DNA of 64,000 bases from a virus (Duplodnaviria; Caudoviricetes): positions 2,085 to 66,084 of the IMG/VR virus record IMGVR_UViG_3300021961_011268; one strand, written 5' to 3'. This document shows positions 4,969 to 42,213 of the stretch, one piece after another (the first letter of the stretch is position 1; each line of letters opens with the position of its first letter). A program made the translations under genes and the position numbers. Under the pieces are notes generated by a model. The model made no database searches and had not been told where the DNA came from. It saw only the letters and a program-made list of their open reading frames with translations.

Positions 4969-4972
4969 TAAA

Positions 4973-15375: not shown

Positions 15376-15392
15376 TTTGGACGACTATCGCA

Positions 15393-17389: not shown

Positions 17390-17400
17390 AGGTAAAGCAC

Positions 17401-17814: not shown

Positions 17815-17815
17815 T

Positions 17816-18484
17816 ATGAGACACGCTGCTCGGCACCTTCAAGATCATCAGATTTTGATATACGGACAAGGTGGTAAACTTGCTATAAAAGCAGATTTGC
17901 CATTAGAACTCATCATGAAATATGATCGTTATTATGATAAGAAAGTTCATCTTATTGAAAAAGGTCGTACGACACGATTCAATGATAGTAAGATGAATAA
18001 AGTTTATGCTGCTGAAAATCATTCAGCACAAAAGTTCAAAGATCAACTACCGCCTTTGTCTGACAAAGAAATGAATAAAGCTTTCAAACGTATTGTCAAG
18101 TCAAAGACGTACCAAAAACTTGTTGAAGCGAAAAGCCAAGCCAAAGGTCATTCTCAGCCAAGTCTTGTCATCAAAGACAGACTTAATGGTAATTGTCAAG
18201 GTTGGGCTCATCCGAATGGTATTATTGAATTACGAACAAATCGAAATCTTTATATTCTATTGCACGAGCTTGCTCACACTGCAGGTCACATGCATCATGA
18301 CGTTGGTTTCATTCAAGCAGTATTGAAACTATCAAGTCGTTTCATATCACGTGAGTTTGCAAAAGAACTGAAAAAGACATTTAAGAAATTAAAGATCAAG
18401 ACAACGATTTCAACTCACATCAAAACTCCACAAGAATGGTTGAAAGATTATGAAAGACTTTCAGGCGCAAGAAAAAAGTTATAA
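17816..18484 (+). CDS. SprT-like zinc metallopeptidase domain protein
   Basis: LLHELAH followed by HMHHD..F; basic protein. Confidence 0.65.
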   Translation: MRHAARHLQDHQILIYGQGGKLAIKADLPLELIMKYDRYYDKKVHLIEKGRTTRFNDSKMNKVYAAENHSAQKFKDQLPPLSDKEMNKAFKRIVKSKTYQKLVEAKSQAKGHSQPSLVIKDRLNGNCQGWAHPNGIIELRTNRNLYILLHELAHTAGHMHHDVGFIQAVLKLSSRFISREFAKELKKTFKKLKIKTTISTHIKTPQEWLKDYERLSGARKKL

Positions 18485-18513
18485 AAATCTATACATCAAA
18501 AGGACAATATATT

Positions 18514-18867
18514 ATGATTATAAAACAAAACATCAACGAATATACAGTAGAAGAATTAATAACTATTAAAGAAGAAGCTTTAAAAAATGCTAGAGAAACA
18601 GTCGAAAAGCATCTCTTACAAAATGGTGAATACGGTTATTGTGGCTTTGCTTGGACTAATATATATGATATTAAAGGTAGTACGAAACTAGGACGTAATA
18701 TGAAAAAAGCAGGTTTTGAAAAGGATTATTCTGGAAATTTTAGTTTATGGAACCCAAGTCAATCATATACACAATGTATGTATACAAAAGAAATAGGTGC
18801 AGAGGCTGCAGCTGCAATATTTAGAAAAGCTGGTTTTGACAGTTATGCACATTCAAGAGCAGATTAA
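18514..18867 (+). CDS. Early hypothetical protein
   Basis: CAAAAGGACA leader like the cassettes; CGFAW motif. Confidence 0.65.
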   Translation: MIIKQNINEYTVEELITIKEEALKNARETVEKHLLQNGEYGYCGFAWTNIYDIKGSTKLGRNMKKAGFEKDYSGNFSLWNPSQSYTQCMYTKEIGAEAAAAIFRKAGFDSYAHSRAD

Positions 18868-18880
18868 AGGATAATATCAA

Positions 18881-19339
18881 ATGATTAAATATATTAGTCA
18901 TCGTGGTAATTTAACTGGGCCTGAACCAGAAAAAGAAAATAGAATTTCTACAGTTGAAAACGTTTTACATCTAGGATTTGATTGTGAGATTGATGTTCGA
19001 TTTATTGATAATAAATTTTATCTAGGTCATGATGAAGCACAAGAAGAAGTATCAATTAAATGGTTAAATCAAAGAGGTCTATGGATCCATTGTAAAAATA
19101 TTGAAGCTTTGATTGAACTTCAGCAATATAAATATATTAATAGTTTTTGGCATCAAGAAGATCAATATACACTTACAAGTAATGGATATATATGGGTTTA
19201 TCCAACTGAATATATACCTATGAATAGCGGTAATCGTATTATTGCAAATTGTGCAAATGTAATGGTTAATGATGGTCGATATGCAGGTTACTGTTCTGAT
19301 TATATACAACATTTAAAGGAAGAATTTAGTGCATTATAG
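18881..19339 (+). CDS. Minimal GDPD/PLC-like phosphodiesterase-fold protein
   Basis: ISHRGN, EN, EIDVR, LGHD and CSD motifs. Confidence 0.75.
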   Translation: MIKYISHRGNLTGPEPEKENRISTVENVLHLGFDCEIDVRFIDNKFYLGHDEAQEEVSIKWLNQRGLWIHCKNIEALIELQQYKYINSFWHQEDQYTLTSNGYIWVYPTEYIPMNSGNRIIANCANVMVNDGRYAGYCSDYIQHLKEEFSAL

Positions 19340-20393
19340 AGTAACGTACGAAATTGAAAGTGATGATATACCTTTAGCAGCTCATAATATTGCTATTGGT
19401 CAAAGTATTGGTAATCCAAATGTTCGTTCAGAAATTGAGATGGCTGACAACATTAAAGAAATGGAAGCAATCGTCGAAAAGATTGAAGGTAATAAAGTAA
19501 TAATTGCCTTTCCTTTGAAAGCGTGGGATTGGCCAAACATATCGCAACTTTTATGTACGATACAAGGTGGTCAGTCAGATATTGAACTTGTTCATCGATG
19601 TCGAGTGATTGATATTGAAGGTTTAGATTATATGAATCAACCAGTTCTTGGTATGAAGGCAATGAAAGAAAGATGCGATGCAACAGATCGTCCTCTCTTT
19701 GGTAGTATTGTAAAGCCAAAATCAGGTCTCACTGAATTACAACTTATCAAAATTGTTGAACAAATGGTTGATGGTGGTACGGATTTCATTAAAGAAGATG
19801 AGATCATGGCAAACAATTCTTATTTACCTCTTCAAAAACGTGTTGATATTATTAGTGAAATGTTAGATAAGAAAAACTCAAATGTTGTTTATTCTTATTG
19901 CGTGAATGCTGATCCACTTGAATTGATTGAAAATCTTGATATTGTCAAGCAAGGCGGTGGTGATTGCGTTCATATTAACTTCTGGTCTGGACTTGGTGCA
20001 TATACAACAAGCAATCAAAAAGGACTTATTACTCACTATCAAAGGTCGGGCATTCGTATTCTAACCGACCCGGATAATCGATTTAGTGTTTCTTGGCCAG
20101 TTGTAGTCAAACTTGGTATTATGGCAGGTATCGATACGATGCACATTGGAATGCTTGGTGGTTATTATCCAGAAGGAGAATCAGAAGAAGAAACACTTGA
20201 GGCATTATCACTTTGTCAAAAGTATGATCGTGTTGCAGCCCTCTCATGTGGTATGAATCCAGATTTTGCACGAGAAATACGTGGTAATATTGGAAATAAT
20301 TGGATGGCTAATATAGGTGGATGGCTACATACAGGTGATAGTATATATCAAAAAGTTTATGAAATGAGAAAAAGTCTAGAGGAAACAATATGA
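19329..20393 (+). CDS. RuBisCO-like protein (form IV)
   Basis: IVKPKSGL and GTDFIKEDE motifs, DTMHIG, SCG; lacks the His294 and Lys334 equivalents; GTG start. Confidence 0.9.
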   Translation: MHYRVTYEIESDDIPLAAHNIAIGQSIGNPNVRSEIEMADNIKEMEAIVEKIEGNKVIIAFPLKAWDWPNISQLLCTIQGGQSDIELVHRCRVIDIEGLDYMNQPVLGMKAMKERCDATDRPLFGSIVKPKSGLTELQLIKIVEQMVDGGTDFIKEDEIMANNSYLPLQKRVDIISEMLDKKNSNVVYSYCVNADPLELIENLDIVKQGGGDCVHINFWSGLGAYTTSNQKGLITHYQRSGIRILTDPDNRFSVSWPVVVKLGIMAGIDTMHIGMLGGYYPEGESEEETLEALSLCQKYDRVAALSCGMNPDFAREIRGNIGNNWMANIGGWLHTGDSIYQKVYEMRKSLEETI

Positions 20394-21097
20394 AAATAAT
20401 TTTGCCAATGGCGGGAAATGGTAGTCGATTTTTTGATGCCGGATATTCTCTACCAAAACCTTTGATTGATGTCAAAGGAAAACCGATGTTTTCTCGTGTT
20501 CTTGATAATTTAAATATTACAAAGGATGATGATATTCATTTCATTGTTCGTATGGAACATGTACTTAATTATCAAATACAAAATCAGATTCATGACTATT
20601 ATCCAGATGCTCATATCCATGCATTAAGTGAAATGAATGAAGGGGCTTGTCAAACTGTTTTGACAGCAATCGATCAATATAGTGAATTAGATTTTATGGT
20701 AGCAAATTGTGACCAAATTATGATATGGGAAAGGCCTGATTTTAATTTTAAAATTGGTGGTACTATCATGACGTTTACACCCGATCATGATAAACCAATA
20801 CATTCATACGTAAAATGCAATGATAAAGGGCATGTGATTGAACTTGCTGAAAAACGTATGATTAGTAATATTGCAACAACTGGTGTTTACCATTTTGGAT
20901 CTCAAAAAGATTTCTATATTGCAGCACATCAAATGATGGAAGCAAATGATCGTACAAATGGTGAATTCTATCTTGCTCCTGTATATAATTATTTAAATAA
21001 ACCAATTGAAATATATCATTGCGAAAAATTCATTGGAATGGGTACACCTCAAGAATTAGAAGAATTGAAACAAACTGATTATTATAAGAACTTATGA
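20390..21097 (+). CDS. Sugar-phosphate nucleotidyltransferase
   Basis: ILPMAGNGSRF...PKPLI, NCDQ, AEK, NGEFY and MGTP motifs. Confidence 0.85.
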   Translation: MKIILPMAGNGSRFFDAGYSLPKPLIDVKGKPMFSRVLDNLNITKDDDIHFIVRMEHVLNYQIQNQIHDYYPDAHIHALSEMNEGACQTVLTAIDQYSELDFMVANCDQIMIWERPDFNFKIGGTIMTFTPDHDKPIHSYVKCNDKGHVIELAEKRMISNIATTGVYHFGSQKDFYIAAHQMMEANDRTNGEFYLAPVYNYLNKPIEIYHCEKFIGMGTPQELEELKQTDYYKNL

Positions 21098-21828
21098 AAC
21101 TTGCTATTTGTGTAACTGGACAATATAGACCAACTGTAAGAAATCCATCAGACGCAAAATTTAATTTAGATCGCTTTCAACAGATCTTTTATGATGCTGA
21201 TGTATATTATCACACATACGATAAAAATGTAGATTCATTACCAAATTGGATAAATCGCAATCAAGTTTATTCATGGCCTGAACCAGAAAATCATTACCAT
21301 CCAGTAAATGATACGCCTTTTTTGTGTCCACATAAAAAATTTCATGATTATCGAAAAAGAAATATTTTAACACATAAGACTGCTCATGCCCATAAGCAAA
21401 TACTTTCTTATGCAAATTTAATTGAACAAATGACATTACCTCAATATCATAGTTATGATATATTGATTCGTATACGTTGGGATACCGCAATCAATATGAC
21501 TCGTCAAGATATTGAAAAGTATTTTGAATATGTAATGAATGAAGGTCCTGTTGGATTTATGACAAGGGCAAATCGTGGACCAAAATATGAAAATGGAAAT
21601 ACCGTTATATTGCCAAAAGATAGTACCGCTATAGATGATGATTGGTATTGTTATTTACCTGATACAATGATACTTCATAGTCCAAAACATTTTGATCCAA
21701 AATATGTTCAAGAACTTTTTTCAAAACGACAATTATGGCCAGCAGAATGGGGATGGTGGCAAACAATGTCAGAACCTTATAATAATAATCATTTATCTGT
21801 CCATGGTGGTGTTATTATTGCAAGATAA
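21094..21828 (+). CDS. Putative glycosyltransferase-like protein
   Basis: KLAICVTGQYR and YDILIRIRWD motifs common in glycan clusters. Confidence 0.5.
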   Translation: MKLAICVTGQYRPTVRNPSDAKFNLDRFQQIFYDADVYYHTYDKNVDSLPNWINRNQVYSWPEPENHYHPVNDTPFLCPHKKFHDYRKRNILTHKTAHAHKQILSYANLIEQMTLPQYHSYDILIRIRWDTAINMTRQDIEKYFEYVMNEGPVGFMTRANRGPKYENGNTVILPKDSTAIDDDWYCYLPDTMILHSPKHFDPKYVQELFSKRQLWPAEWGWWQTMSEPYNNNHLSVHGGVIIAR

Positions 21829-21833
21829 ATCTA

Positions 21834-21862
21834 TTTACATATTTAAAAGTATAATATATAAT
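21834..21862 (+). promoter_or_regulatory. Sigma70-type promoter
   Basis: TTTACA-N17-TATAAT. Confidence 0.65.
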
Positions 21863-21923
21863 TATAATTATATTTTTAGAAGTATAATATATAATTATAA
21901 TTATATTTTTAGAAGTATAATAT
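21847..21923. repeat. 33-bp AT-rich tandem repeat (~2.3 copies)
   Basis: Unit AAGTATAATATATAATTATAATTATATTTTTAG containing the palindrome ATATAATTATAATTATAT. Confidence 0.9.
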
Positions 21924-21940
21924 TAAGAGGAAAGTAAAAC

Positions 21941-22555
21941 ATGAGTGAGTTAAGAAAATCATTTGATAGAGCTGGATCTGATAAAGGCTGGAAACATGGT
22001 TATGAAAGGGCTTATGAAGAAACCTTTGAACCAATTCGAAATGAACCATTGAATATACTTGAAATTGGTATTTTACATGGTGAATCACTTGCTGCTTGGG
22101 TTGACTACTTTCCGAATGCACAAATTTATGGCATTGATACATTCGAAAGAGTTGCACCAAAAGATATTAATATATTGAATCATGAACGTGTACATTGGTT
22201 AAAAGGTATGAGCCAAACAATTAATACAAAAGAATTAATAAAAAAAACTTGGCCTGATGTTCAATTTGATATTATTATTGATGATGGCCTACATACGCCA
22301 ATTGCGAATGGTGCCACATTTGAAAATCTGATTGAATTTTTAAAAGATGACGGATATTATTTTATTGAAGACATATATCCACTTGATATTCTTACTGAAA
22401 AAGAATGGCAAAATCGTTGGATCACAACACACCAAAAAGATTTTACGATGATAAATTGGGTAAGATTTACAAATGCATTATTTGGATATAAAGAAAAACA
22501 TTATGATCTTCGAGATCGATATGCTGATTCTTATATTATAAGGATATCGAAATAA
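21941..22555 (+). CDS. Class I SAM O-methyltransferase
   Basis: SDK..HGY, ILEIGI, IYGID, DIIIDDGLH and YFIED motifs. Confidence 0.85.
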   Translation: MSELRKSFDRAGSDKGWKHGYERAYEETFEPIRNEPLNILEIGILHGESLAAWVDYFPNAQIYGIDTFERVAPKDINILNHERVHWLKGMSQTINTKELIKKTWPDVQFDIIIDDGLHTPIANGATFENLIEFLKDDGYYFIEDIYPLDILTEKEWQNRWITTHQKDFTMINWVRFTNALFGYKEKHYDLRDRYADSYIIRISK

Positions 22556-23289
22556 TGAAAGCTTTTATTATTACAATGAAGGATAATTCTGAATCTGTTG
22601 CACTGTCCAATCGTTGTGTTGAATCAATAAAAAATTCGAATACACTACTTGATGTTTATATATCAAATGGAGTTGTACCAGAAACACTTTCAGAAACACT
22701 TCATTCGTATTTTCGAAATTCATCTATACCAAATATATATTATACATATCCAAAAACTCCTGATGAAAATCGTCATGATATTAAATCAGGTTTAAAACTT
22801 TCAGCCTATCAAACAGTTGATTTGGATAAAAGAGTTTCTTGCCTAATGTCTCATTATGTATTATGGCATTATGCAATTAAAAATAATGAGACAATTATGA
22901 TACTTGAACATGATGCGTGTTTTTATCCAAAGAAATTCAATGTTAATATAAAATTTTCTGGTTCTATTCTTGGTCTTAATGATCCAAGAGGAGCAACAAG
23001 AAAAGCAAATGTATATCATGAGAAGCTTGCAATTGGCAATCCAGAATCAAAACCAATTCCAAGAGAGATCCCTTGGATTGATGATCATATGGTACCTCAA
23101 GGTCTTGCTGGAAATTCAGCTTATATTATTAAACCAAAAGGTGCTCAAATATTATGTGAATTAATTGCTGAACATGGATTATGGCCGAATGATAGTATCA
23201 TGTGTAAACAATTAATGCCAGGTGAATTGCAAACAGTTTATCCATATGTCACATATGTAAAACAAACTAAGTCATTTACATCATCTTAA
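22555..23289 (+). CDS. GT25-like glycosyltransferase
   Basis: SCLMSHYVLW, ILEHDA and AYIIKPKGA motifs. Confidence 0.75.
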   Translation: MKAFIITMKDNSESVALSNRCVESIKNSNTLLDVYISNGVVPETLSETLHSYFRNSSIPNIYYTYPKTPDENRHDIKSGLKLSAYQTVDLDKRVSCLMSHYVLWHYAIKNNETIMILEHDACFYPKKFNVNIKFSGSILGLNDPRGATRKANVYHEKLAIGNPESKPIPREIPWIDDHMVPQGLAGNSAYIIKPKGAQILCELIAEHGLWPNDSIMCKQLMPGELQTVYPYVTYVKQTKSFTSS

Positions 23290-23298
23290 GGAAATATT

Positions 23299-23997
23299 AT
23301 GAAAGCATATGTTATTACAATTGAGAATCATAAAGGTTCAAATGATTGCGCAGATCGATTAATTAAATCTGGTAATGCAGATCGTTTTGGTAGTGGTCTA
23401 TGGATTCATAAATTTAAGGCAACAACACCTACTAATATCCATCAGATATTTGAAAATGAAGGTTTAAATCCTTCTGCTTTTCAGGATAAATATTCAATTC
23501 AAGAGAATGCAATGGCTTGTTTTTATTCTCATTATTCCTTATGGAAAAAGACGGTTGAAGAAGATGAGCCTCATATGATCTTTGAGCATGATGCAGTTAT
23601 TGTGGGTGATATTCCAAATATATTCACACTACCTGATAAAGGATGTATATCATTTGGTAAACCTTCATATGGCAAATATAATATTCCAACACAAATTGGT
23701 ATTAATCCATTACAGAGTAAGCAATACTTTCCAGGCGCGCATGCGTATCTAGTCAGACCTCATTGTGCAAAACAATTAATTCAAAAGGCTAAGACACACG
23801 CAGCTCCAACAGATCTTTTTTTAACAAATGCTAATTTCAATTTCCTTGAAGAATATTATCCATGGCCTGTTGAAGTAAAAGATACCTTTACAACAATACA
23901 ACAAGAAAATGGATGTATTGCAAAACATAATTATAATAAGAATTATCGTATTGATACAAATTGGGATAATCCTAATGCGGGACAAGATTTTAAATGA
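23299..23997 (+). CDS. GT25-like glycosyltransferase
   Basis: ACFYSHYSLW, IFEHDA and GAHAYLVRP motifs. Confidence 0.75.
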   Translation: MKAYVITIENHKGSNDCADRLIKSGNADRFGSGLWIHKFKATTPTNIHQIFENEGLNPSAFQDKYSIQENAMACFYSHYSLWKKTVEEDEPHMIFEHDAVIVGDIPNIFTLPDKGCISFGKPSYGKYNIPTQIGINPLQSKQYFPGAHAYLVRPHCAKQLIQKAKTHAAPTDLFLTNANFNFLEEYYPWPVEVKDTFTTIQQENGCIAKHNYNKNYRIDTNWDNPNAGQDFK

Positions 23998-24635
23998 ATG
24001 TATTCTTAACAGGTTGTGATAAAAATACTGAATGGATGCTACAATGGTGGTATCACGAATATTCAAAATATAATACAACACCTGTTATTTTTGCAAACTT
24101 TGGTGTAAGTCATACAACGCTTGAGTGGGCAAAGGATAATTTTCATGATATTATTGATATGACTAATCAAAAACAAAGTGGCTGGTTTTTAAAACCTCTT
24201 GCCATGAGAGAAGCTGGAAAGGTCTATTCGAAAGTTTGTTGGATTGATACTGATTGTCATGTACTAGATAATATTTCTGAAATCTTTTCATTTTCGAAAA
24301 AAGAAAAACTTGGCATGGTACAAGATAGACCTTGGACAAAAAGAACTGGAGAGATATGGCATAATAGTGGTATTGTTTTATTTGAAAATAATCCAAAGAT
24401 ATTAAATGATTGGATCAATGAGATTCAATCAAATCCAAGAAAAGGTGATCAAGAAACATTGCATTATATGCTTAAGACACCATTAAATGTTTTAATATTT
24501 ATTGAAGATTTACCATTTATATATAATACACTTCGACTCGATTTTGTTGATGGTGTAGCACAAAAAAATGCAAAGGTCCATCATTGGACAGGAGCTAAAG
24601 GAAAAGAAAAAATAAAAGAGATAATGAACAAATGA
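23994..24635 (+). CDS. GT-A glycosyltransferase (GT8-like)
   Basis: WIDTDC, HNSGIV, GDQETL and HHWTG motifs. Confidence 0.75.
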   Translation: MNVFLTGCDKNTEWMLQWWYHEYSKYNTTPVIFANFGVSHTTLEWAKDNFHDIIDMTNQKQSGWFLKPLAMREAGKVYSKVCWIDTDCHVLDNISEIFSFSKKEKLGMVQDRPWTKRTGEIWHNSGIVLFENNPKILNDWINEIQSNPRKGDQETLHYMLKTPLNVLIFIEDLPFIYNTLRLDFVDGVAQKNAKVHHWTGAKGKEKIKEIMNK

Positions 24636-25354: not shown

Positions 25355-25843
25355 ATGACAAATGAAATTAGAAATAAAGAAAATCAAGTAATTTTCACTT
25401 ATGAAGAAAAATGCTTAAATCAAGCTAACTTAGTTGGTGCTAACTTAGTTTGGGCTAACTTAGTTGATGCTGACTTATCTGGTGCTAACTTATCTGGGGC
25501 TAACTTACATGGTGCTAGCTTATTTAGGGCTGACTTATCTGGGGCTGACTTATCTGAAGCTGACTTAGTTTACGCTAATTTAGCTGGGGCTAATTTATCT
25601 GGCGCTAATTTATCTGGGGCTAACTTAGTTGGTGCTAACTTATTTATGGCTGACTTATCTGGGGCTGACATATCTGGGGCTGACATATCTGGTGCTGACT
25701 TATTTATGGCTAATATAGGTGGTATTACGGCAAATGCCGATCAATTAGTAGCATCATTTAAAATTCCAATTGATTTGATTTTAGATATTCAGCCTGATAT
25801 TCGTATTGTTGAAGAAGAATATCGTGATACTGAGGAAAAATAA
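25355..25843 (+). CDS. Pentapeptide repeat protein
   Basis: About 20 tandem A(N/D)Lxx repeats (15-bp DNA units). Confidence 0.92.
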
Positions 25844-26453: not shown

Positions 26454-26724
26454 TTATAAATTTAATGAAGATGTAAATATTGTTGAACTTCAAGAATATG
26501 TTGATGCTACTTATTCTCAGCATTATTCAACAAACAAATATCAAGCCGGTGAATTCATTATTGATGCTGGTCATGGTATGGGTTTTGCAATCGGTAATAT
26601 CATGAAATACGCTCAGCGTTATGGCAAAAAAGATGGTTGCAATCGTAAAGATTTAATGAAAATATTACATTATGCTTTGATTGCTTTATACGTACACGAT
26701 AAAGAAAATAGTAATGAATTATAA
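26446..26724 (+). CDS. DUF3310-like protein
   Basis: QHY, GFAIGNIMKYAQRYGKK and DLMK motifs. Confidence 0.75.
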   Translation: MFDYKFNEDVNIVELQEYVDATYSQHYSTNKYQAGEFIIDAGHGMGFAIGNIMKYAQRYGKKDGCNRKDLMKILHYALIALYVHDKENSNEL

Positions 26725-27319
26725 AGACCTTTTAGGCAAAGTTGCCCACCAACAATTTGTATATGGTCCTGATGTAGACTTTCTCAAGTCATTCCGGTCG
26801 AACCAAATAATAAGCAAAGAGTGGTTGGTGGACAACATTCAAAAAAGTGTCAGTGTTGACTCCTACAATAATGTAGCAGTCCTTGGATCATGGAGTTCTG
26901 TCCTTCTCTATGAACTCATGTCAATTGGAAGTGATGCCCCAATTGAGCACTGGCACTTTTTTGATATCGATCCACATGTTCATATTCAACGTGATCGTTA
27001 TTTTGAAGCAAATAATATGAATAAGAACTATACATCATACACAAAAGATGTAGATATACTTTTCCGTGATCACGGATTTCATAAACAATTTGATCTCATA
27101 ATCAATCCAAGTTGCGAACATATGATGGATCTTCGAACAACAAATGGGCCAATCTATGCTCTTTGCAGTAATAATATGAATAATATAGATCAACATATTA
27201 ATTGCGTACAATCAAGCCAACAATTACGCGAAAAGAACAATCTCAGTACTGTTTTATATAAGGGAACAAAGCAATTGTCAACAGGATATAATCGCTTTTG
27301 TGTGATTGGATTGCATTAA
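26714..27319 (+). CDS. SAM-methyltransferase-fold hypothetical protein
   Basis: SKEWL, VLGSW, FDID and IINPSCEHM motifs. Confidence 0.55.
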   Translation: MNYKDLLGKVAHQQFVYGPDVDFLKSFRSNQIISKEWLVDNIQKSVSVDSYNNVAVLGSWSSVLLYELMSIGSDAPIEHWHFFDIDPHVHIQRDRYFEANNMNKNYTSYTKDVDILFRDHGFHKQFDLIINPSCEHMMDLRTTNGPIYALCSNNMNNIDQHINCVQSSQQLREKNNLSTVLYKGTKQLSTGYNRFCVIGLH

Positions 27320-27333
27320 AAATACATCTTTTG

Positions 27334-27341
27334 TATAAATA
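27334..27341 (+). promoter_or_regulatory. T4-type late promoter heading the curli-like operon
   Basis: TATAAATA 5 nt before the ATG at 27347. Confidence 0.65.
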
Positions 27342-27346
27342 TATCT

Positions 27347-27640
27347 ATGGATATATTTGGACTTATCTCTGAAGTTGGAGCTCCCATAGCTGCAATGATA
27401 GCAATGGGGTTTTTTATATTTCTCGTTATTCGACAAATGCTTGAGGGTATTATCGAACGAGTGAATACTCTTACTATGTTTTGTAATAGTCTAGAAAACC
27501 GTGCAAGAACAATGTCAAATGAAATGATTAAGATTGATCTACTTGTTTCAAGTGCTCTTGATCTAAGACCTGATATTGATAGAATTGCACGAGCAGAAAA
27601 CTTTGTAGAAGATAAAAAAGTGGATGTAAGAAGAGATTAG
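27347..27640 (+). CDS. Single-TM coiled-coil membrane protein
   Basis: LISEVGAPIAAM TM segment; paralog of the next gene. Confidence 0.65.
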   Translation: MDIFGLISEVGAPIAAMIAMGFFIFLVIRQMLEGIIERVNTLTMFCNSLENRARTMSNEMIKIDLLVSSALDLRPDIDRIARAENFVEDKKVDVRRD

Positions 27641-27928
27641 ATGGAAGAAAGTTTTAATATTATTAATTTGATTAGTGAATATGGTTTTCCTGTTGTTGCA
27701 ATGGTTGGTCTTGGATATTTTATTTATTTTATATGGAATTTTGTTAATAAAAATGTTGATCCTGAAATGCATAAAATGCATCTTGCTCTTATTCGAGTAA
27801 TTGATCAAACAAGAATGCTCGATCAAGATATGATAAGATTGCAGCAAAAAGTCAATGTTGTATTAGAATATAGAGAAATATATGGAAGAGCACATCAAAA
27901 AACTAAAAAGAAAAAAGAGGATGAATAA
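27641..27928 (+). CDS. Single-TM coiled-coil membrane protein
   Basis: LISEYGFPVVAM TM segment; paralog of the previous gene. Confidence 0.65.
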   Translation: MEESFNIINLISEYGFPVVAMVGLGYFIYFIWNFVNKNVDPEMHKMHLALIRVIDQTRMLDQDMIRLQQKVNVVLEYREIYGRAHQKTKKKKEDE

Positions 27929-28424
27929 ACTTATCGATAAATTTATCATATTAATTATGGTATCTTTTTGGATTTTTATTATTTGCATTTCAATAGCAAA
28001 TTCAACTGAGTTGAATCATAAATTTAAATCACCATCATTTAATGGTATTAATACGAGTGCTCATTATTTGACAATTGAGAATCAAATGAAATCTCGTAAA
28101 GATAAGATTCAATCAGATATTGAAGCTGAATTGTTGGCAAAACAAAGAGAAGAAGAAAATACTTTATTGTCAAAATTTATTCGTAATTTTGAATCAAGAG
28201 TATATTCACAGTTAAGTAAACAATTAGTTGATCAATTATTTGATGGAACTGGATCCTCATTTGGATCATTTGTTCTTGAAGGAAGTACAATTACATATCA
28301 AATACAACCTTGTGATGATATGATAAGATGCAATATTGGCGATGAAGTAATTGTTATGGATATTGTTGATGAAGCCGGCTCGAGCACTAATATAACAATA
28401 CCGATAGGTGCTGGAACTTTTTAA
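27921..28424 (+). CDS. csgF: Curli assembly protein CsgF-like
   Basis: Signal peptide followed by TELNHKFKSPSFNG, resembling the CsgF N-terminal F.NP.FGG motif; adjacent to csgG. Confidence 0.75.
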   Translation: MNKLIDKFIILIMVSFWIFIICISIANSTELNHKFKSPSFNGINTSAHYLTIENQMKSRKDKIQSDIEAELLAKQREEENTLLSKFIRNFESRVYSQLSKQLVDQLFDGTGSSFGSFVLEGSTITYQIQPCDDMIRCNIGDEVIVMDIVDEAGSSTNITIPIGAGTF

Positions 28425-28433
28425 GGTAGTAAA

Positions 28434-29249
28434 ATGCGTATATTCTTAAAAATTGTATTGTATACAATTATATTATCAATTATTTCAGGATGCGCATTGA
28501 ATAACTTTAAATATGATAAGATGCGACAAGATATGCCTATTGAGGAAATATTACCTACGCATGATGCGTTAAAGTCAATAAATCCTCCTGATAGAATGCC
28601 AGTTGTCGCGGTATATCAATTTGATGATAAAACGGGTCAAAGAAAACAGGTTGATTCGTCTGCTTTATTTAGCACAGCAGTTTCACAAGGAGCTGAAACA
28701 ATGTTGATTGATGCATTGAAAACTGCTGGAAATGGACAATGGTTTCGAGTTGTTGAAAGAATAGGAATAGATCATTTAGTAAGAGAAAGACAAATAGTAA
28801 GAAGCACAAGACAAGCTTATAATGATAATGAAGAATTGGCACCAATGCTTTTTGCGGGTATGATACTTGAAGGTGGTATTATTGGATATGATACAAATAT
28901 AGAAACAGGTGGAGCAGGAGCAAGGTATTTAGGAATAGGTGGACAAACACAATATCGTAAGGATTTTATTACTGTTTCTTTAAGAGGAATAAGCACACTA
29001 ACTGGAGAAGTATTATTAAATGTCCAAACGTCAAAAACAGTATTATCGGTGTCAAATGGATTTGATGTTTTTAAATTTGTTGATTTAGATACAAAACTAA
29101 TAGAAGTAGAAAACGGCATGACGGAAAATGAAAGTATAACTCGATCGACAAGATCATGCATTGAAGCAGCTGTTTTAGCACTTATTAAACAAGGTGATTC
29201 TCGTAACCTTTGGAAAATACGAGATAAAAAGGATAAAAGTAATGAATAA
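28434..29249 (+). CDS. csgG: Curli secretion channel CsgG lipoprotein
   Basis: Lipobox ISGC, VAVYQFDDKTGQRK, FSTAVSQG, WFRVVER and GGAGARYLGIG. Confidence 0.92.
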   Translation: MRIFLKIVLYTIILSIISGCALNNFKYDKMRQDMPIEEILPTHDALKSINPPDRMPVVAVYQFDDKTGQRKQVDSSALFSTAVSQGAETMLIDALKTAGNGQWFRVVERIGIDHLVRERQIVRSTRQAYNDNEELAPMLFAGMILEGGIIGYDTNIETGGAGARYLGIGGQTQYRKDFITVSLRGISTLTGEVLLNVQTSKTVLSVSNGFDVFKFVDLDTKLIEVENGMTENESITRSTRSCIEAAVLALIKQGDSRNLWKIRDKKDKSNE

Positions 29250-30006
29250 CATATTAGAACTAATAACGTTTATTATATGGTTTATTATCTCTATTGTTAT
29301 TATGACATTTATTTTGGGATATGCAAGTGCGCATGCGCAAACTTCATCAGATAATGAGATATATTTAAATCAAAGTGGAGATACAATCACTTTAAATATA
29401 AATCAAATAGGATATGGAAATAAATTTGGTGGAAGTGTTTCATCAGGTGTTGTAGCAACAGATCTAACTTTGACTGGTTCATCACTTGATATTGATTTGA
29501 CTCAAGATGGTAATAGTAACCAATTTCTAGGTAGTATTATTTTTGATAATAGTTTCCTTGATTTTACGACTACTGGTGATACCAATATTCTTACATTAGA
29601 TATTGGAAGCACTGGATCTGCAGATGATTCAAATCTTTTCTTGGATTTTACGGGAGATAATAATACACTTGATCTGAATATTGGAAGTGTAGCATCTGCC
29701 GAAAGATTAGATTTTGATTTAAACGTAATTGGTGGATCAAATATCTTTGATGTTGATATTGAAGCTGATGATGTGACATGGCAAGTTGATATTACTGGTT
29801 CAGGAAATGATTTCCTTTCAAATATCAAGGATGGTGCATATAACTCATTGACTATTGATTTTACTGGGGATAATGGTGATATTGATATTAATCAATGGTC
29901 AGGTTCATGTCCACAAGGTGTAACATCTTGCTTTGGAGTAATTGATGCAACGATTAATTCAGATAATGCAATTATACAAATTAACCAAAAAGATACTGTC
30001 GAATAG
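29242..30006 (+). CDS. Secreted curlin-like beta-repeat protein
   Basis: Signal peptide; N.I.L.Q.G repeats (DNEIYLNQSG, LNINQIGYGN, IDLTQDGNSN). Confidence 0.65.
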   Translation: MNNILELITFIIWFIISIVIMTFILGYASAHAQTSSDNEIYLNQSGDTITLNINQIGYGNKFGGSVSSGVVATDLTLTGSSLDIDLTQDGNSNQFLGSIIFDNSFLDFTTTGDTNILTLDIGSTGSADDSNLFLDFTGDNNTLDLNIGSVASAERLDFDLNVIGGSNIFDVDIEADDVTWQVDITGSGNDFLSNIKDGAYNSLTIDFTGDNGDIDINQWSGSCPQGVTSCFGVIDATINSDNAIIQINQKDTVE

Positions 30007-31117
30007 TCTTATATATTTTTTAATATTCTTTTCTCAAGGTTATGCCGCTGTTGAAAAGAATATTGGAAATATTATTGAAGTATCTGGAACAAATGGTATT
30101 ACATCAATTGATGGTGTAACTAAGGTTGGCACTAAAGATTTAGATATCTATTTTCGTGATACTATTGAAACAGTTCAAGGTAAAATGAAAATTGATTTTG
30201 TTGATGAAACAAAATTGTCATTAACAGAGCATTCTAAAGTCCTTATTGATGAATACTATTTTGATCCAAATCCATCAAAATCAAAAATGACTATGAGTTT
30301 TATTCAAGGAACGGCAAGATTTGCAACTGGTAAATTAGGTCTTGTTCCAAAGGAGAATATTATTATTAATACACCAACAGCAGTTGTTGGCGTTCGTGGT
30401 ACAGATTTCACAACAACAGTAGATGAACTTGGTCGATCATTAATTATTCTATTGCCAGATGAGGAATGTACAATTGATGGTGATTGCAATCCATCAGGAG
30501 AAATTACTGTTACAAATGCAGGAGGCGTTGTCACATTGACTGAAGCATATTCAGCAACAATGGTTACATCCTTTGATAATGCTCCAATGCAACCAGTAAT
30601 ACTTGAAAATATTACCATTAACATTATTGATAATATGTTTATTGTGACACCACCAAACGAAATAGAACAATCAATAGAGGAAGAAGAATCTAATAATCGG
30701 CCATCATATGATTTACTCGACTTTAATGATTTGGATATAAATTTATTAAGTGAAGATTGGGATGAAGAAGATCTTTCGATAAATGAAGTGGATATTAATT
30801 ATCTTGATGGTGATTTTTTACAAAATATTCTTGATGATTTGCTATTACAACAAGATTATTTAAAAGAATCAAGTCAATCAACAAGTTATGATATACAAGG
30901 CACAAATATTGGTTTTGATTCACAAACAAACTATTATACCTTTATTGACATTGGTGAGGGTACAATTCGATTTTATCGAATCGTTGGTGGTATAATAAAT
31001 ATAGTAACAAAAATAGATAGTAACATAACATTGGATACTGAAAATGATGGTAAAAAGAACTTTATTACTAATGGTGATGGTCAATCTGTTGTTCTTACAA
31101 TCCGCCAAGGCAATTGA
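29966..31117 (+). CDS. FecR-domain periplasmic protein
   Basis: D.IET, TPTAVVGVRGTDF and GEITV motifs; acidic linker; start uncertain. Confidence 0.85.
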   Translation: MQLYKLTKKILSNSLIYFLIFFSQGYAAVEKNIGNIIEVSGTNGITSIDGVTKVGTKDLDIYFRDTIETVQGKMKIDFVDETKLSLTEHSKVLIDEYYFDPNPSKSKMTMSFIQGTARFATGKLGLVPKENIIINTPTAVVGVRGTDFTTTVDELGRSLIILLPDEECTIDGDCNPSGEITVTNAGGVVTLTEAYSATMVTSFDNAPMQPVILENITINIIDNMFIVTPPNEIEQSIEEEESNNRPSYDLLDFNDLDINLLSEDWDEEDLSINEVDINYLDGDFLQNILDDLLLQQDYLKESSQSTSYDIQGTNIGFDSQTNYYTFIDIGEGTIRFYRIVGGIINIVTKIDSNITLDTENDGKKNFITNGDGQSVVLTIRQGN

Positions 31118-31400
31118 TCAAGATCAGAATAGTGTTTTTATTAATCAAATAGGTGATGATCTTAATTTGAATCTTAATCAAACTGGATATAATAATAATA
31201 TTGAGATTGACACAGATACGAATAGTAATAACATTTCAGTAGATCAAACAGGTTCTGGCCATGATGTAATATTAAATTTATATGGAACACAACCAAATAA
31301 TGTTTCTGTTTCACAATCAAGTACCACACCTCAAAGTTATTCAATTGAAACATATTGTATTACTATCGGAGGCTGCTCTATTTCAGTAGATCAACAATGA
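31044..31400 (+). CDS. Small secreted curlin-like protein
   Basis: Signal peptide; NSVFINQIG, LNLNQTG and ISVDQTG repeats. Confidence 0.6.
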   Translation: MMVKRTLLLMVMVNLLFLQSAKAIDQDQNSVFINQIGDDLNLNLNQTGYNNNIEIDTDTNSNNISVDQTGSGHDVILNLYGTQPNNVSVSQSSTTPQSYSIETYCITIGGCSISVDQQ

Positions 31401-33247
31401 AATATATCACATCAATATTCTCTTGCATTGCAGTCCTTATACTAGGATTATTTTTAAAAGTCACAGATCCATATATTATTGAAAGACTTCGTTTAATTAA
31501 TTTTGACCAATATCAACAATTAATACCACAACATAATAATAAAGATATAACACTTATTAATATTGGTGAGGAATCATTAAATCAATATGGTCAATGGCCT
31601 TGGCCTCGTTCTATTTTTGCTCAAGTCATTTCTGATTTAAGATCAGCAAATGCTGGAATTATTGTATTTAATATTATGTTTCCTGAGAGCGATAGATTTG
31701 GACAAGATGAAATTTTAAAATCATGGATAGATGGTAATGGTATTATTCTATCACAAACTGGTTCGCCAAAAGGAAGATCAGATTCAGCACCGTTTGTTGG
31801 CACTGTTGTTCTTGGAAGTGGTGATCCATATCAGTTTGTAGATGAATATCCAGGTATTGTTACAAATATAGAAGAATTTGAATCTTCTGCTTGGGGTGTT
31901 GGTGTATTAAACTCAAAACAAGAAATTGATAATGTAACAAGAAGAATGCCATTATTGATTCAATCAAATAATCAATTATATCCATCATTAAGTATGGAAA
32001 TACTGAGAGCAACGGTTGAAGAAAAGTCATATACAATAAAAGTAGAACCAACTGGTATTGAAAATTTTAGAATACCTCCATATGAACCAATACAAACTGA
32101 CGCGTCTGGTTCAATATGGATTAATTGGTCAAATAAATTTAAATCATACGAATATGGTAAAGACACTCTGCCAGATCTAAATGGTAATACGGTGATTGTT
32201 GGTCTTACTGCAGAAGGTCTTGTTCCATTAGTACCTACACCTCGTGGAGCTCTTTATCCACACGAGTTACAAGCTTCAGTATTAGCGGATCTAATGGACT
32301 CAAGCACATCAATTACTCGACCAAATTGGATGCCTATTGCTGAGATTTTATTAATTACAATTACAAGTATACTACTTCTTCTTTCTGTATATTATTTACC
32401 AATAGTATATTCGCTTGTATGTTCATTGTTTTTATTATCAATAAACATGTTAATACCGACATATCTATGGATGGAATCATTTTATTTGATGGATATGTCA
32501 TTTGGTATAATCTTAACAGTTATTCTTTTTGCACATTCAAGTTTTAATAATTTCTATAAGCAATTTAAATTACGACAACAAATTAAGAAACAATTTGAAC
32601 ACTATCTAGATCCAAGACAGGTGAAGATACTACAGAAAAATCCTGGGTTATTGAAACTTGGTGGTGAACGAAAAGAAATGACTTATTTGTTTATGGATAT
32701 TATTGGCTTTACACCAATATCAGAATTCTATAAGAACAAGAATGACCCTGAAGGTTTAGTTGAATTAGTGAATGAATTCCTTGATGAGATGACAAACATT
32801 ATATTGAAGAATGGTGGCATGATCGATAAGTTCATGGGAGACTGTATCATGGCAATATTCAATGCACCGATCGATATGCCTAATCATGCTGAGATGGCTA
32901 TTAAGTCTTGTATCGAAATCGAAGACAAAGTCAAAGAACTGAAAGCCAAATATAAAGAACGTGGTTTACCTGATATCAATGTCGGAACAGGAGTCAATAC
33001 CGGTACGGCAATCATCGGTAATATGGGATCAACAACAAGATTCGACTTTAGTGTGATAGGCGATGCGGTGAACTTGGCAGCAAGACTTGAAGCAACTGCT
33101 GGACGTGGCGATTACAAGAAATATCCTACAATATATTCTTCTATGACAAAAGAACAATTGCCTGATTCAATCAAGAGTAAACATATCGGTGATATCAAAG
33201 TGAAGGGAAAAGAAGACGTAATTGAAATATATACTATTTCTTCTTAA
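31397..33247 (+). CDS. CHASE2-domain class III adenylate cyclase
   Basis: GQWPWPRS CHASE2 motif, 3 TM helices, FMDIIGFT, DKFMGD, FDFSVIGDAVNLAARLE and VKGK. Confidence 0.93.
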   Translation: MKYITSIFSCIAVLILGLFLKVTDPYIIERLRLINFDQYQQLIPQHNNKDITLINIGEESLNQYGQWPWPRSIFAQVISDLRSANAGIIVFNIMFPESDRFGQDEILKSWIDGNGIILSQTGSPKGRSDSAPFVGTVVLGSGDPYQFVDEYPGIVTNIEEFESSAWGVGVLNSKQEIDNVTRRMPLLIQSNNQLYPSLSMEILRATVEEKSYTIKVEPTGIENFRIPPYEPIQTDASGSIWINWSNKFKSYEYGKDTLPDLNGNTVIVGLTAEGLVPLVPTPRGALYPHELQASVLADLMDSSTSITRPNWMPIAEILLITITSILLLLSVYYLPIVYSLVCSLFLLSINMLIPTYLWMESFYLMDMSFGIILTVILFAHSSFNNFYKQFKLRQQIKKQFEHYLDPRQVKILQKNPGLLKLGGERKEMTYLFMDIIGFTPISEFYKNKNDPEGLVELVNEFLDEMTNIILKNGGMIDKFMGDCIMAIFNAPIDMPNHAEMAIKSCIEIEDKVKELKAKYKERGLPDINVGTGVNTGTAIIGNMGSTTRFDFSVIGDAVNLAARLEATAGRGDYKKYPTIYSSMTKEQLPDSIKSKHIGDIKVKGKEDVIEIYTISS

Positions 33248-33536
33248 TAGCGTCAGCACCAAAGAATGCAGACACAAGAACTGCAATTGACGCAAAATAT
33301 GTTGGTGCAATATCGGCAATAAGTTCAGCTGCTTTTTCCATTCCCATTAATGAAGTTAAAGCAATACCTATTGGATATACTAATAGTCCAATCAATGAGA
33401 ACCATGCCATTTTACGAATAGCATCACGTTGAGCGTCTTGATCTTCAAGTTCTTTACGTTTAAACTCAAGATGCATTTGTACTTCTTCTTCAGATATGTG
33501 ACCATCGCCATTTAAATCTACTGGTTTATCAGACAT
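33234..33536 (-). CDS. Two-TM membrane protein with EF-hand-like loop (holin-like)
   Basis: DLNGDGHISEEE loop and two TMs; has its own late promoter. Confidence 0.6.
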   Translation of the reverse strand: MSDKPVDLNGDGHISEEEVQMHLEFKRKELEDQDAQRDAIRKMAWFSLIGLLVYPIGIALTSLMGMEKAAELIADIAPTYFASIAVLVSAFFGADAIKKK

Positions 33537-33563
33537 AGAAAATCCTTTTACTAATTAATAATA

Positions 33564-33571
33564 TATTTATA
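33564..33571 (-). promoter_or_regulatory. T4-type late promoter
   Basis: TATAAATA on the minus strand. Confidence 0.6.
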
Positions 33572-33580
33572 AAAAAACTA

Positions 33581-33609
33581 TTTACAACATTATTATTATA
33601 TGGTATAAT
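33581..33609 (+). promoter_or_regulatory. Sigma70-type promoter
   Basis: TTTACA-N17-TATAAT. Confidence 0.7.
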
Positions 33610-33643
33610 AAATTATTATTAACAAAATTACAAAGGATCTATT

Positions 33644-33925
33644 ATGAATACGTTTACAAAAGATGAAATTATCAATATGTTGAGGAATAATACCTGTTAT
33701 ATTAACTTTACTAAAAAAGATGGTACAATAAGAAAAATGAATGCTACTCTTAATGAACAGTTTATACCTGAAGATATGAAACCAAAATCAAATACAACAA
33801 TGAAAGAAAATGATAATGTTGTTCGTTGTTTTGATGTTGATGTTCAAGATTGGAGATCATTTCGAGTCGATTCAATTAATTCATTTAAAGATGCATATAT
33901 TGCTTTCATTGAATCAGTAGAATAA
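33644..33925 (+). CDS. SH3/WYL-like (DUF2693-type) phage protein
   Basis: FTKKDGTIRKM and WRSFR motifs. Confidence 0.75.
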   Translation: MNTFTKDEIINMLRNNTCYINFTKKDGTIRKMNATLNEQFIPEDMKPKSNTTMKENDNVVRCFDVDVQDWRSFRVDSINSFKDAYIAFIESVE

Positions 33926-41162: not shown

Positions 41163-41717
41163 CTATTTATAATCGTATTTAAATAATTCAATATCTTTTT
41201 TATACTCGTAAGCCACAATATCAATAAGTTCTTGGTTATAATAATCGGTATAATGTGTATGTTCTGAAGTATTTTGCGGTTCTCCTAATGGTTCATATAC
41301 ATTATAAAAATCTTGTATTATTTTAAAATCTTTGTCTAAGTTTTCAAATTGAAGTATATGATCAATATTATCATTAATAAATTTATATTGCTCTTTTTTT
41401 ACACAACCATATCCTTTTACCCATTGTTTCTTAATAAATCCCGCAAAGTCATGTTTCATGTCAGTTGTTCTTTTGATATAATGATAACCTGAAACCATAC
41501 GATCCCAAGGATTACGAACAACTACAAATGTAGTACCAAGATCACCATATGTTTTTTGCAAAAAATTCATATCAGCATGCTTACCCATATAAATGCTTTT
41601 ATGACCTAATTGCTGAGTATTTGATATATGTTTTACTAACCAATTTGAAATAGATACTCCAGCAGTTTTTGGAATATGAATAAATGTGCTATATGGTTTT
41701 TCAATCAAAACTGTCAT
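41163..41717 (-). CDS. Sulfotransferase family 2 protein
   Basis: FIHIPKTAGVS and VRNPWDRMVSGY motifs. Confidence 0.85.
   Translation of the reverse strand: MTVLIEKPYSTFIHIPKTAGVSISNWLVKHISNTQQLGHKSIYMGKHADMNFLQKTYGDLGTTFVVVRNPWDRMVSGYHYIKRTTDMKHDFAGFIKKQWVKGYGCVKKEQYKFINDNIDHILQFENLDKDFKIIQDFYNVYEPLGEPQNTSEHTHYTDYYNQELIDIVAYEYKKDIELFKYDYK
41164..41171 (-). promoter_or_regulatory. T4-type late promoter
   Basis: TATAAATA on the minus strand upstream of gp2. Confidence 0.6.
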
Positions 41718-42213
41718 ATTTAGTTTTCTTTTTTCTGCCTCTACGCATTGTCATCGGTTTTAAAGGCTTTGTTGATTTTGGTTTAATTCCCATTTTTTCT
41801 AATTCGTTTTCAGTCCAAATCAAAAACTTCCAATTACGATCATCACAATATTCTTTTGCAGCTTTCCATTTATTATTATTCTTAATATAATCAAAGCTTT
41901 CATTTAAATATCTTTTTGTCTTTCTACCTGGAAATTTAGGCGGTTTTGTTTGTGAATATGGTTTTATTTCAATAAGAGCAACTTCGCCATTCTTAAATTT
42001 AATTTTAAGGTCTGGAAAATAACGATGGTACTTACGATCCATCTCATAAAAGTATGGAATGATAATTTCTTCTGAACTCCATTTGAGCACATCAGTATTA
42101 TTATCACACCATTTAAAACAATAACGTTCCCACATTGATCTCCATATGATTTTTGTTGGATCTCCTTCGTATTTATGTGGATTTTTTAATGTAAATTTAC
42201 CTGAATACGCCAT
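41701..42213 (-). CDS. 4: Head completion nuclease gp4
   Basis: NPHKYEGD, RSMWE, WSSEE, HRYFPD, EIKP and KW.AA motifs. Confidence 0.93.
   Translation of the reverse strand: MAYSGKFTLKNPHKYEGDPTKIIWRSMWERYCFKWCDNNTDVLKWSSEEIIIPYFYEMDRKYHRYFPDLKIKFKNGEVALIEIKPYSQTKPPKFPGRKTKRYLNESFDYIKNNNKWKAAKEYCDDRNWKFLIWTENELEKMGIKPKSTKPLKPMTMRRGRKKKTKYDSFD

Follow-up and report, generated by a model that had tools for sequence, protein, structure and literature searches.

The stretch of DNA analysed here (the window, 64,000 nucleotides in length) covers positions 2,085 to 66,084 of the IMG/VR virus record IMGVR_UViG_3300021961_011268, which has an estimated completeness of 40%, and it contains a block of curli-type genes joined to genes for a FecR-domain protein and a CHASE2 receptor cyclase. 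As a piece of a T4-like phage genome, the window has genes for ribonucleotide reductase, RNase H, gp32, a gp33-like coactivator and baseplate proteins of the gp6, gp8 and gp25 types. Eight tightly packed genes lie on the plus strand at 27334-33247 in the order TM1, TM2, CsgF, CsgG, Cur1, FecR protein, Cur2 and CHASE2 class III cyclase, with successive spacing of 0, -8, +9, -8, -62, -71 and -4 nt. A preliminary description of this DNA, made from the letters alone, had placed the same eight genes at the same coordinates as one packed operon. The inventory was borne out by the matches in our scan of 84 open reading frames (ORFs) of the window (Pfam, with PHROGs for family assignment), and the layout by the single strand and the spacing, which runs from +9 to -71 nt. 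A contig from another run spans 27949-32913 with 8 differences and no gaps, and a second other-run contig, about 97% identical, spans 30383-33567 with gaps confined to the region after the cyclase stop codon.

The block opens with TATAAATA, a T4-type late-promoter motif, at 27334-27341 (+), 5 nt upstream of the first ATG. In the window as a whole the motif occurs at chance level (14 copies against 14.6 expected). Of 38 distinct relatives, however, 19 have it in the 80 nt before TM1, mostly at -13 to -17, whereas only 198 of 12819 background windows of 80 nt do (1.5%), which supports the late-promoter motif that the preliminary description had proposed; in the other 19 relatives additional genes abut TM1. 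A scan of 26600-33800 revealed no sigma-70-like promoters or terminators above chance inside the block, and no RNA run containing the block sequence was found among the public runs listed.

The secretion part of the block consists of CsgF and CsgG. The CsgF homolog (27921-28424, +; PF10614, 1e-11) has a signal peptide and an alternative upstream ATG at 27882, and its mature N-terminus carries the motif FKSPSFNG (P-x-F-x-G), which is conserved with bacterial CsgF and which we take to be the element that docks in CsgG. No solved chain matched CsgF in a phmmer search. CsgG (28434-29249, +) is an outer-membrane lipoprotein pore with the lipobox ISGC (PF03783, 3e-50; NCBIfam CsgG, 7e-52), and it aligned with E. 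coli CsgG (3x2r, 4e-47) over residues 16-270, which is the full length, with the lipobox cysteine aligned.

Two genes encode curlin-family proteins. Cur1 (29242-30006, +; alternative GTG start at 29194) is a secreted repeat protein of 254 aa with about eight G-D-x-N / Q-x-G repeats plus a Cys pair. On its own the window's Cur1 had no Pfam match, and it scored 4.8e-4 on the NCBIfam CsgA model, below the family cut-off. Of 28 Cur1 family members, 25 matched Curlin_rpt at E<=1 (best 7e-6), and among the solved chains the family profile best matched CsgA (8enq, E 0.003), followed by a curlin-repeat protein (8c50, E 0.14). The mean column identity of the Cur1 alignment is 57%, and the Gly, Asn and Gln positions of the repeats are invariant. 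Cur2 (31047-31400, +) is a 117-aa curlin-repeat protein that scored 21.4 bits on PF07012 against a cut-off of 20.7. Compared with the E. coli curli system (3x2r, 6l7a, 8enq), the phage block likewise has a full-length CsgG with a lipobox, the N-terminal motif of CsgF and the curlin repeats; in contrast to that system, no CsgE, CsgC or CsgD was found in it, and it additionally carries FecR, the cyclase and the small membrane genes. Unlike the E. coli curlins, Cur1 is longer and has Cys pairs, and the matches to CsgA and CsgB fall below the family cut-offs.

Between the two curlin genes lies the gene for a secreted FecR-domain protein (29945-31117, +; PF04773, 2e-10). The protein is laid out as a signal peptide, a FecR domain (about residues 36-240, with the PF04773 match at 73-163), an acidic linker and a beta-rich C-terminal domain, and the last of these was found only in viral relatives and in two bacterial cassettes described below. 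The structural neighbours of the C-terminal domain in the Atlas are viral only and include proteins of 234-254 aa, a curlin-like size, which we regard as a lead only. The FecR profile gave no match to solved chains at E<=1, which leaves a link to MtxA unconfirmed by sequence, and a comparison with the Cur1 profile returned nothing outside the signal peptides.

The last gene (31397-33247, +) encodes a CHASE2 receptor class III nucleotide cyclase of 616 aa (CHASE2 PF05226, 3e-41; Guanylate_cyc, 3e-18). The start at 31397 agrees with the N-termini of relatives, and an upstream TTG at 31355 is also open. Hydropathy analysis placed hydrophobic segments at residues 4-22, 314-332, 337-355 and 361-379, with the CHASE2 domain at about 23-313 and the catalytic domain at about 423-616. 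Because one membrane segment is N-terminal and three follow later, CHASE2 is predicted to be periplasmic and the catalytic domain cytoplasmic. The best solved match was Pseudomonas aeruginosa CyaB (3r5g, 1.9e-31), with other adenylate cyclases next. Numbered from the Met at 31397, the catalytic residues are Asp434, Lys478, Asp482, Ser552, Asn559 and Arg563 (32696-33085, +). Asp434, Lys478, Asp482, Asn559 and Arg563 (the last two in NLAAR) were invariant in 27 sequences, and Ser552, which stands 7 residues before Asn559 where CyaB has Thr, was kept in at least 90% of them. The preliminary description was right about the metal-binding residues Asp434 and Asp482, about Lys478 and about Asn559/Arg563, but its ATP-specifying Lys/Asp pair was wrong: Ser552 sits at the position of the CyaB Thr, which makes the pair, Lys/Ser(Thr), class IIIb-like, although Ser is neither the Asp of class IIIa nor the Thr of class IIIb. 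In the accessible text of PMC2613629, class IIIb cyclases are defined partly by Thr in place of the substrate-binding Asp. The metal Asp residues, the Lys and the Asn/Arg all align with class IIIb cyclases (CyaB 3r5g, and 1wc1); unlike CyaB, the phage protein has CHASE2 as its sensor domain and Ser in place of the class IIIb Thr. ATP appears to be the likelier substrate.

Relatives of the block keep its content and order. All eight genes recur, in this order, in the pelagiphages HTVC008M and Melnitz. A search with the cyclase returned 194 IMG/VR relatives; 40 of their loci extend 5.5 kb or more upstream of the cyclase, and in 38 of these TM1, TM2, CsgF, CsgG and FecR lie upstream on the same strand. 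All seven other genes were upstream in 33 of the 40, with Cur1 in 36 and Cur2 in 35. When the survey was anchored instead on FecR (at least 560 relatives, the best 80 examined, counts being loci with enough sequence), all 67 loci had CsgG upstream, and 57 of 61 had the cyclase downstream. Some loci have unrelated metabolic genes inserted between Cur2 and the cyclase. The linkage of the module genes is far beyond chance.

The block is a further copy of the viral type VIII secretion system (T8SS)/curli module of pelagiphages, which is already known. The accessible text of PMC9599517 (Wittmers et al. 2022, mSystems) describes the whole region in SAR11 phages of the podo- and myo-types, in the order 'histidine kinase' (one or two), CsgF, CsgG, CsgA/B, FecR, a second CsgA/B and adenylate cyclase, with FecR always after the curli genes and the second curlin and cyclase only frequent. 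According to the same text, module proteins occur at all 65 ocean stations surveyed, expression of the module was detected in metatranscriptomes, and an alphaproteobacterial origin is proposed; in that text CHASE2, the late promoter and transmembrane segments are each mentioned 0 times. PMC7029224 and PMC9004378 deal with CsgF/CsgG only, and the words 'cyclase' and 'FecR' occur in them 0 times. The preliminary description had cited csgF/csgG reports in phages, and these exist, but it missed the prior publication of FecR and the cyclase in PMC9599517. The window shares with the pelagiphage module (HTVC008M KC465899, Melnitz MZ577097) the genes, their order and the setting in a T4-like marine phage. 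It differs in that protein identity to HTVC008M and Melnitz is only 35-48% where matched (Cur1 26-27%), Cur2 is cut to 117 aa, and the block follows an island of lipopolysaccharide (LPS) genes and does not lie beside ssb. Three features of the published annotation, namely the histidine kinases, FecR as an iron regulator and the lack of any mention of CHASE2 in the accessible text, do not fit the module of the window.

FecR-domain genes also accompany CHASE2 receptors in bacteria. We searched one genome per species with the cyclase alignment as query and examined the best 80 of 501 related loci. An ORF matching the phage FecR profile was present in 52 of these 80 closest CHASE2 cyclase loci, and in 45 of them it was no more than 500 nt from the cyclase ORF; many of the 28 loci with no FecR match have little flanking sequence. 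Three of the 80 are atypical, being two phage-like short low-GC contigs (L084, L085) and one cassette (L088). Elsewhere FecR-domain genes are uncommon, at about 1-4 per genome in 130 of the 401 genomes sampled (E<=1e-10). Because FecR genes adjoin CHASE2 cyclases in 52 of 80 bacterial loci, FecR and the cyclase of the phage block look like an inherited sensor pair and not an iron regulator. The bacterial partners are fused to TPR, RTX or Calx-beta modules. Similar pairs have been reported in Burkholderia, where a LysM-FecR gene shares an operon with a CHASE2 kinase (PMC5192318), in Magnetospirillum, where mtxA is paired with a CHASE2 cyclase (PMC4439547), and in Sinorhizobium meliloti, where the FecR-domain gene smc02177 adjoins cyaD1 and is needed to keep secondary infection under control (PMC5498481). 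The Sinorhizobium precedent invoked in the preliminary description is also supported by the accessible text of PMC13001267, in which NsrA, a beta-barrel protein of the outer membrane, relays a signal to CHASE2 cyclases. The phage block resembles these pairs in that an exported FecR-domain protein is encoded beside a CHASE2 receptor; the bacterial pairs differ in having TPR, RTX, Calx-beta or LysM modules, no phage-type C-terminal domain and no linkage to curli genes. L084 and L085, contigs of 2.2 and 3.3 kb with GC 0.39 and 0.37, carry phage-type cyclases 61% and 39% identical to that of the window and were binned in a Rhizobiaceae metagenome-assembled genome (MAG) and a Saprospiraceae MAG, respectively; they look like phage fragments misplaced in bacterial bins.

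Two bacterial loci carry the curli and sensor genes together. L088 (genome G001), a contig of 82.6 kb from a Caulobacteraceae MAG, otherwise carries ordinary metabolic genes. Its cassette consists of CsgF and CsgG, two curlins, a FecR of the full-length phage type and a CHASE2 cyclase that shares 40% identity with that of the window, at a GC of 0.52 against 0.58-0.59 in the flanks. A second cassette, in L265 (genome G560), has the same six genes with 87% DNA identity over exactly the CsgF-to-cyclase block, and the flanks of the two loci are unrelated. Since the 87% identity ends at the block edges and the flanks have nothing in common, mobility is suggested, and the sequence points to the six-gene block being a mobile cassette; no terminal repeats bounding it were found. 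Unlike the window, the Caulobacteraceae cassettes lack TM1/TM2, have both curlins before FecR and have a GC of 0.52-0.53. The full-length FecR matches in the two cassettes have E values of 5e-126 and 3e-124, and the class sample (401 genomes) contained one genome with such a match, G001 itself, the family sample (301 genomes) two. Seven other CsgF-positive genomes of the alphaproteobacterial sample have CsgF, CsgG and curlin-like ORFs, with FecR or cyclase within about 10 kb in none of the seven. From these counts the fused module is rare in cells. The two cassettes are an exception to the published statement that bacterial curli operons lack FecR and the cyclase. The preliminary description had called for a check of operon conservation across phages and bacteria; the linkage stands in phages, with the cyclase sometimes in another unit, but bacterial FecR/CHASE2 pairs are not linked to curli genes save in these two cassettes.

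Two neighbouring genes of the cassettes deserve mention in their own right. In G560, 440 nt downstream of the cassette cyclase and on the same strand, lies a gene for the Pycsar membrane effector PycTM (L265 6417-7010, -; PF18967, 8.8e-25; PADLOC PycTM, 9.6e-18); the cyclase there scores 9e-29 on the PycC model, and no PycTM is found near the other fetched cyclase loci. In L088 a gene for an SpdA/CpdA-like phosphodiesterase (4740-5600; NCBIfam 2e-33 and 4e-24, both below cut-off) lies directly upstream of the cassette. We do not count it with the shared cassette, since the 87% identity begins only at CsgF.

The first two genes of the phage block, TM1 (27347-27640, +; 97 aa) and TM2 (27641-27928, +; 95 aa), encode small membrane proteins of phrog_18771 (TM2, 3.5e-26) that are paralogs of each other (25% identity, E 2e-11). 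Each has one hydrophobic segment by hydropathy and a charged tail, the C-terminal part of TM1 being helical and charged, and their profile matched only helical designs among the solved chains. No His is conserved across 15 members of the family (92-104 aa), and neither TM1 nor TM2 matched kinase families or defence models. The 'histidine kinase' label of PMC9599517 was rejected on the missing kinase match and the missing conserved His. TM1 and TM2 look somewhat holin-like: TM2 weakly matches a holin family (phrog_4898, E 0.008), and the named Atlas clusters closest to the pair, as leads only, are YvrJ (0.87) and Holin_BhlA (0.85). The window has a T4-type lysozyme gene at 10277-10714, and 35 of 74 distinct relatives have its homolog on the strand of the first TM gene, no more than 2.5 kb upstream of that gene. 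TM1 and TM2 are retained at loci without the cyclase and are absent from the bacterial cassette. A gene of about 80 aa and of unknown function also occurs directly upstream of TM1 in 29 of the 74 relatives; L005 2752-3448 and L044 2629-2883 are examples of these upstream genes, and the window has neither the lysozyme gene nor the 80-aa gene at that position.

Taken together, we favour, with a probability of about 0.55, the reading that this uncultured T4-like marine phage carries a late system for curli-type export and fibre formation, to which a FecR/CHASE2 envelope sensor is attached. Late in infection, a single transcript from the TATAAATA promoter would give all the proteins. The CsgG lipoprotein and CsgF would assemble a curli-type pore in the host outer membrane, and Cur1 and the shortened Cur2, exported by the Sec pathway, would cross it and form fibre-like polymers at the surface. 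The FecR-domain protein, also exported by Sec, would act together with the secretion block. The periplasmic CHASE2 domain of the four-pass inner-membrane cyclase would sense an envelope cue, most likely by way of the FecR-domain protein as in the widespread bacterial FecR/CHASE2 pair, and the class IIIb-like cytoplasmic domain would make cyclic AMP (cAMP). The two small single-pass membrane paralogs, which are not kinases, would accompany the block. Such a system might serve aggregation, a barrier to superinfection or the control of lysis. The preliminary description had proposed a surface sensor that relays outer-membrane events to cAMP rather than a simple amyloid exporter. The receptor of that proposal is sound, in that a CHASE2 cyclase predicted to face the periplasm, with intact catalytic residues, is encoded alongside an exported FecR protein in a pairing that is common in bacteria. 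The opposition to an amyloid exporter finds no support, because CsgG, CsgF and two curlin-family proteins are every gene needed for a fibre system. The relay to cAMP is supported by the FecR/CHASE2 pairing but is weakened by the tighter tie of FecR to the curli genes, by the separate cyclase unit of one lineage and by the failure to find a cAMP receptor domain in the phage genomes searched.

Several observations weigh against the favoured reading. On the side of the fibres, CsgG keeps the Phe but has Leu in place of the E. coli Asn in the alignment with 3x2r, at two positions that we take to have the constriction roles. The window's Cur2 is internally shortened (117 aa against 175-297 aa in relatives) by loss of the internal repeats, with the family-invariant Gly, His and Cys kept, and the short form recurs gap-free in other-run contigs, including the about 97% identical strain. 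The families of CsgE, CsgC/CsgH and CsgD were not found among the 84 scanned ORFs of the window; phages and Alphaproteobacteria are stated in the accessible text of PMC9599517 to have the same CsgE/CsgC/CsgD-type absence. Melnitz-infected cultures showed no clumping under the conditions used, according to the accessible text of PMC9004378. On the side of the sensor, the FecR-domain neighbour in S. meliloti is dispensable for perceiving the known plant signal (PMC5498481). The phage cyclase domain also scores on the PycC models of Pycsar systems (2.5e-20), and for this reason the nucleotide that it makes is not certain; the match to 7r65, which we take to be a PycC, is only 3e-4. PycTM is absent from the window, HTVC008M, Melnitz and G001, and phmmer found none at the phage loci fetched, so that membership of a Pycsar anti-phage system was rejected despite the PycC score. 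A search for the cyclic-nucleotide-binding domain (PF00027) in the window, in two complete phage genomes and in three large contigs gave no match, and a literature search on phage-encoded cyclases and cAMP in Pelagibacter surfaced nothing usable.

The linkage of FecR to the cyclase is also looser than that of FecR to the curli genes. FecR stands with no cyclase nearby in 4 of 61 loci; in L222 and L229, the block stops after Cur2 and faces convergent genes for a helicase and UvsX. In L061, which the two exceptions among the 40 cyclase loci (L058, L070) resemble, ribonucleotide reductase, SegE and a methyltransferase precede the cyclase; next downstream, on the opposite strand, comes the CsgG-Cur1-FecR block, with CsgF cut by the contig end. 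In this lineage the cyclase thus belongs to a separate, convergent transcription unit with replication genes, though it is still a neighbour. We also compared distance matrices by Spearman correlation in a first set of 79 distinct phage loci (2701 pairs) and a second of 51 loci (1176 pairs) with endolysin as the backbone marker. In the first and second sets, respectively, the FecR domain correlated at 0.78 and 0.84 with CsgG, 0.76 and 0.83 with CsgF, and 0.75 and 0.87 with Cur1, but at only 0.41 and 0.61 with CHASE2; in the second set endolysin correlated at 0.61 with CHASE2 and 0.22 with CsgG. These values suggest that CsgF-to-FecR moves as one exchangeable block and that the cyclase partly follows the phage backbone. 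They are a hint and not a test because the pairs are not independent, and the alignments of the fast-evolving parts are weak.

The same observations also fit an accessory role of FecR in secretion. FecR could be an adaptor or gate standing in for CsgE, or a fibre-end or nucleator protein, and the cyclase an independent, uncoupled add-on sensor. The FecR-CsgG linkage in all 67 loci, the published description of FecR as a constant follower of the curli genes and of the cyclase as only frequent, the distance correlations, the cyclase unit of the L061 lineage, the absence of CsgE and, as a lead only, the curlin-sized viral neighbours of the FecR C-terminal domain all fit such a role. On the other hand, in bacteria 52 of 80 loci without curli genes have a FecR gene next to the CHASE2 cyclase, none of the seven ordinary alphaproteobacterial curli loci has FecR or the cyclase, and the comparison of the FecR and Cur1 profiles was empty; we consider the accessory role rather unlikely. 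The sensor may instead, as the preliminary description had it, be the main business of the block, with pore events at CsgG/CsgF passing through FecR to the CHASE2 cyclase and cAMP tuning lysis through TM1/TM2 as holin and antiholin. TM1 and TM2 are indeed small single-pass proteins with charged tails and weak holin-like matches, the lysozyme-type gene is close upstream in 35 of 74 relatives, NsrA offers a precedent, the accessible text of PMC9004378 also proposes a lysis role for the pore, and one bacterial copy has a Pycsar membrane effector gene after the cyclase. Yet the fibre genes are conserved and complete, the window's own lysozyme gene lies 16.6 kb from the block, beyond the LPS-gene island, a nucleotide-binding domain turned up neither in TM1 and TM2 nor in the rest of the phage records searched, and TM1/TM2 are kept at loci that lack the cyclase and are missing from the bacterial cassette that has it. 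A role mainly in signalling strikes us as improbable, and the case for lysis timing is circumstantial. We would give as little credence to an end-of-infection checkpoint of the envelope, in which TM1/TM2 would act as holin and antiholin, FecR would report the state of the pore or of curlin export to the cyclase, and the nucleotide would act on a membrane effector to set lysis or exclude superinfecting phages, with the G560 cyclase and its Pycsar-type effector as the cellular counterpart.

Two further explanations are less probable still. The accessible text of PMC7029224 and of PMC9004378 proposes that CsgG, with or without CsgF, is an open pore, either an ungated channel for nutrient uptake or a secretin- or pinholin-like lesion; the curlin-like genes would then be vestigial. 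The absence of CsgE and the shortened Cur2 of the window are consistent with this proposal, but the presence of Cur1 in 36 and Cur2 in 35 of 40 loci, the 57% mean column identity of Cur1 with its invariant repeat positions, and the invariant residues of a short Cur2 that persists in a strain from another run make it very doubtful. FecR as a regulator of the ferric-citrate type, which would tie the module to iron uptake, is suggested by the Pfam domain name and is discussed in the accessible text of PMC9599517. The phage protein, however, has only the periplasmic FecR domain, its N-terminus is signal-peptide-like with no match to an anti-sigma domain, no extracytoplasmic function (ECF) sigma factor or TonB-dependent receptor was found among the 84 ORFs scanned, and TPR, RTX or Calx-beta modules are fused to the bacterial relatives, which adjoin CHASE2 cyclases. 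This is unlike FecR/FecI/FecA signalling, which has the anti-sigma domain with a membrane anchor, the ECF sigma factor and the TonB-dependent transducer that were not found here, and we rejected the iron-regulator reading as next to untenable.

Phages of SAR11 and OM43 rank among the most abundant marine viruses, and to our knowledge their hosts have no curli genes. The curli block occupies about 6 kb of such phage genomes. If fibres were made, the sticking and sinking of infected cells would be altered, and if the FecR/CHASE2 sensor worked, this would be a rare lytic phage with a second-messenger receptor of its own. Regardless, the labels of the module need correction: iron regulator is wrong for FecR and kinase is wrong for the small genes, and the cyclase is a CHASE2 receptor with a Lys/Ser pair.

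The surroundings of the block contain further genes. Between the lysozyme gene and the curli block is an island of envelope-sugar genes (11408-24632) that encode a KdsA-like DAHP_synth_1 protein, a cytidylyltransferase, a radical SAM/SPASM protein, FkbM methyltransferases and three family-25 glycosyltransferases. Within this island, a phage ORF at 19440-20390 matches the catalytic domain of the RuBisCO large chain (PF00016, 3.7e-26). A gene for a pentapeptide-repeat protein (25355-25840; PF00805, 5e-31) lies a short distance upstream of the module, and an ORF with a TnsA-like endonuclease N-terminal domain (41704-42213, -; PF08722, 4e-18) stands amid the baseplate genes. Immediately downstream of the module, a gene at 33234-33536 (-) is convergent with the cyclase gene, overlaps its end by 14 nt and has its own TATAAATA at 33564-33571. 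It encodes a 100-aa protein with an EF-hand-like N-terminus (weak Pfam matches) and a hydrophobic C-terminal part, and we place it outside the module because its homologs in HTVC008M and Melnitz adjoin the tape-measure gene.

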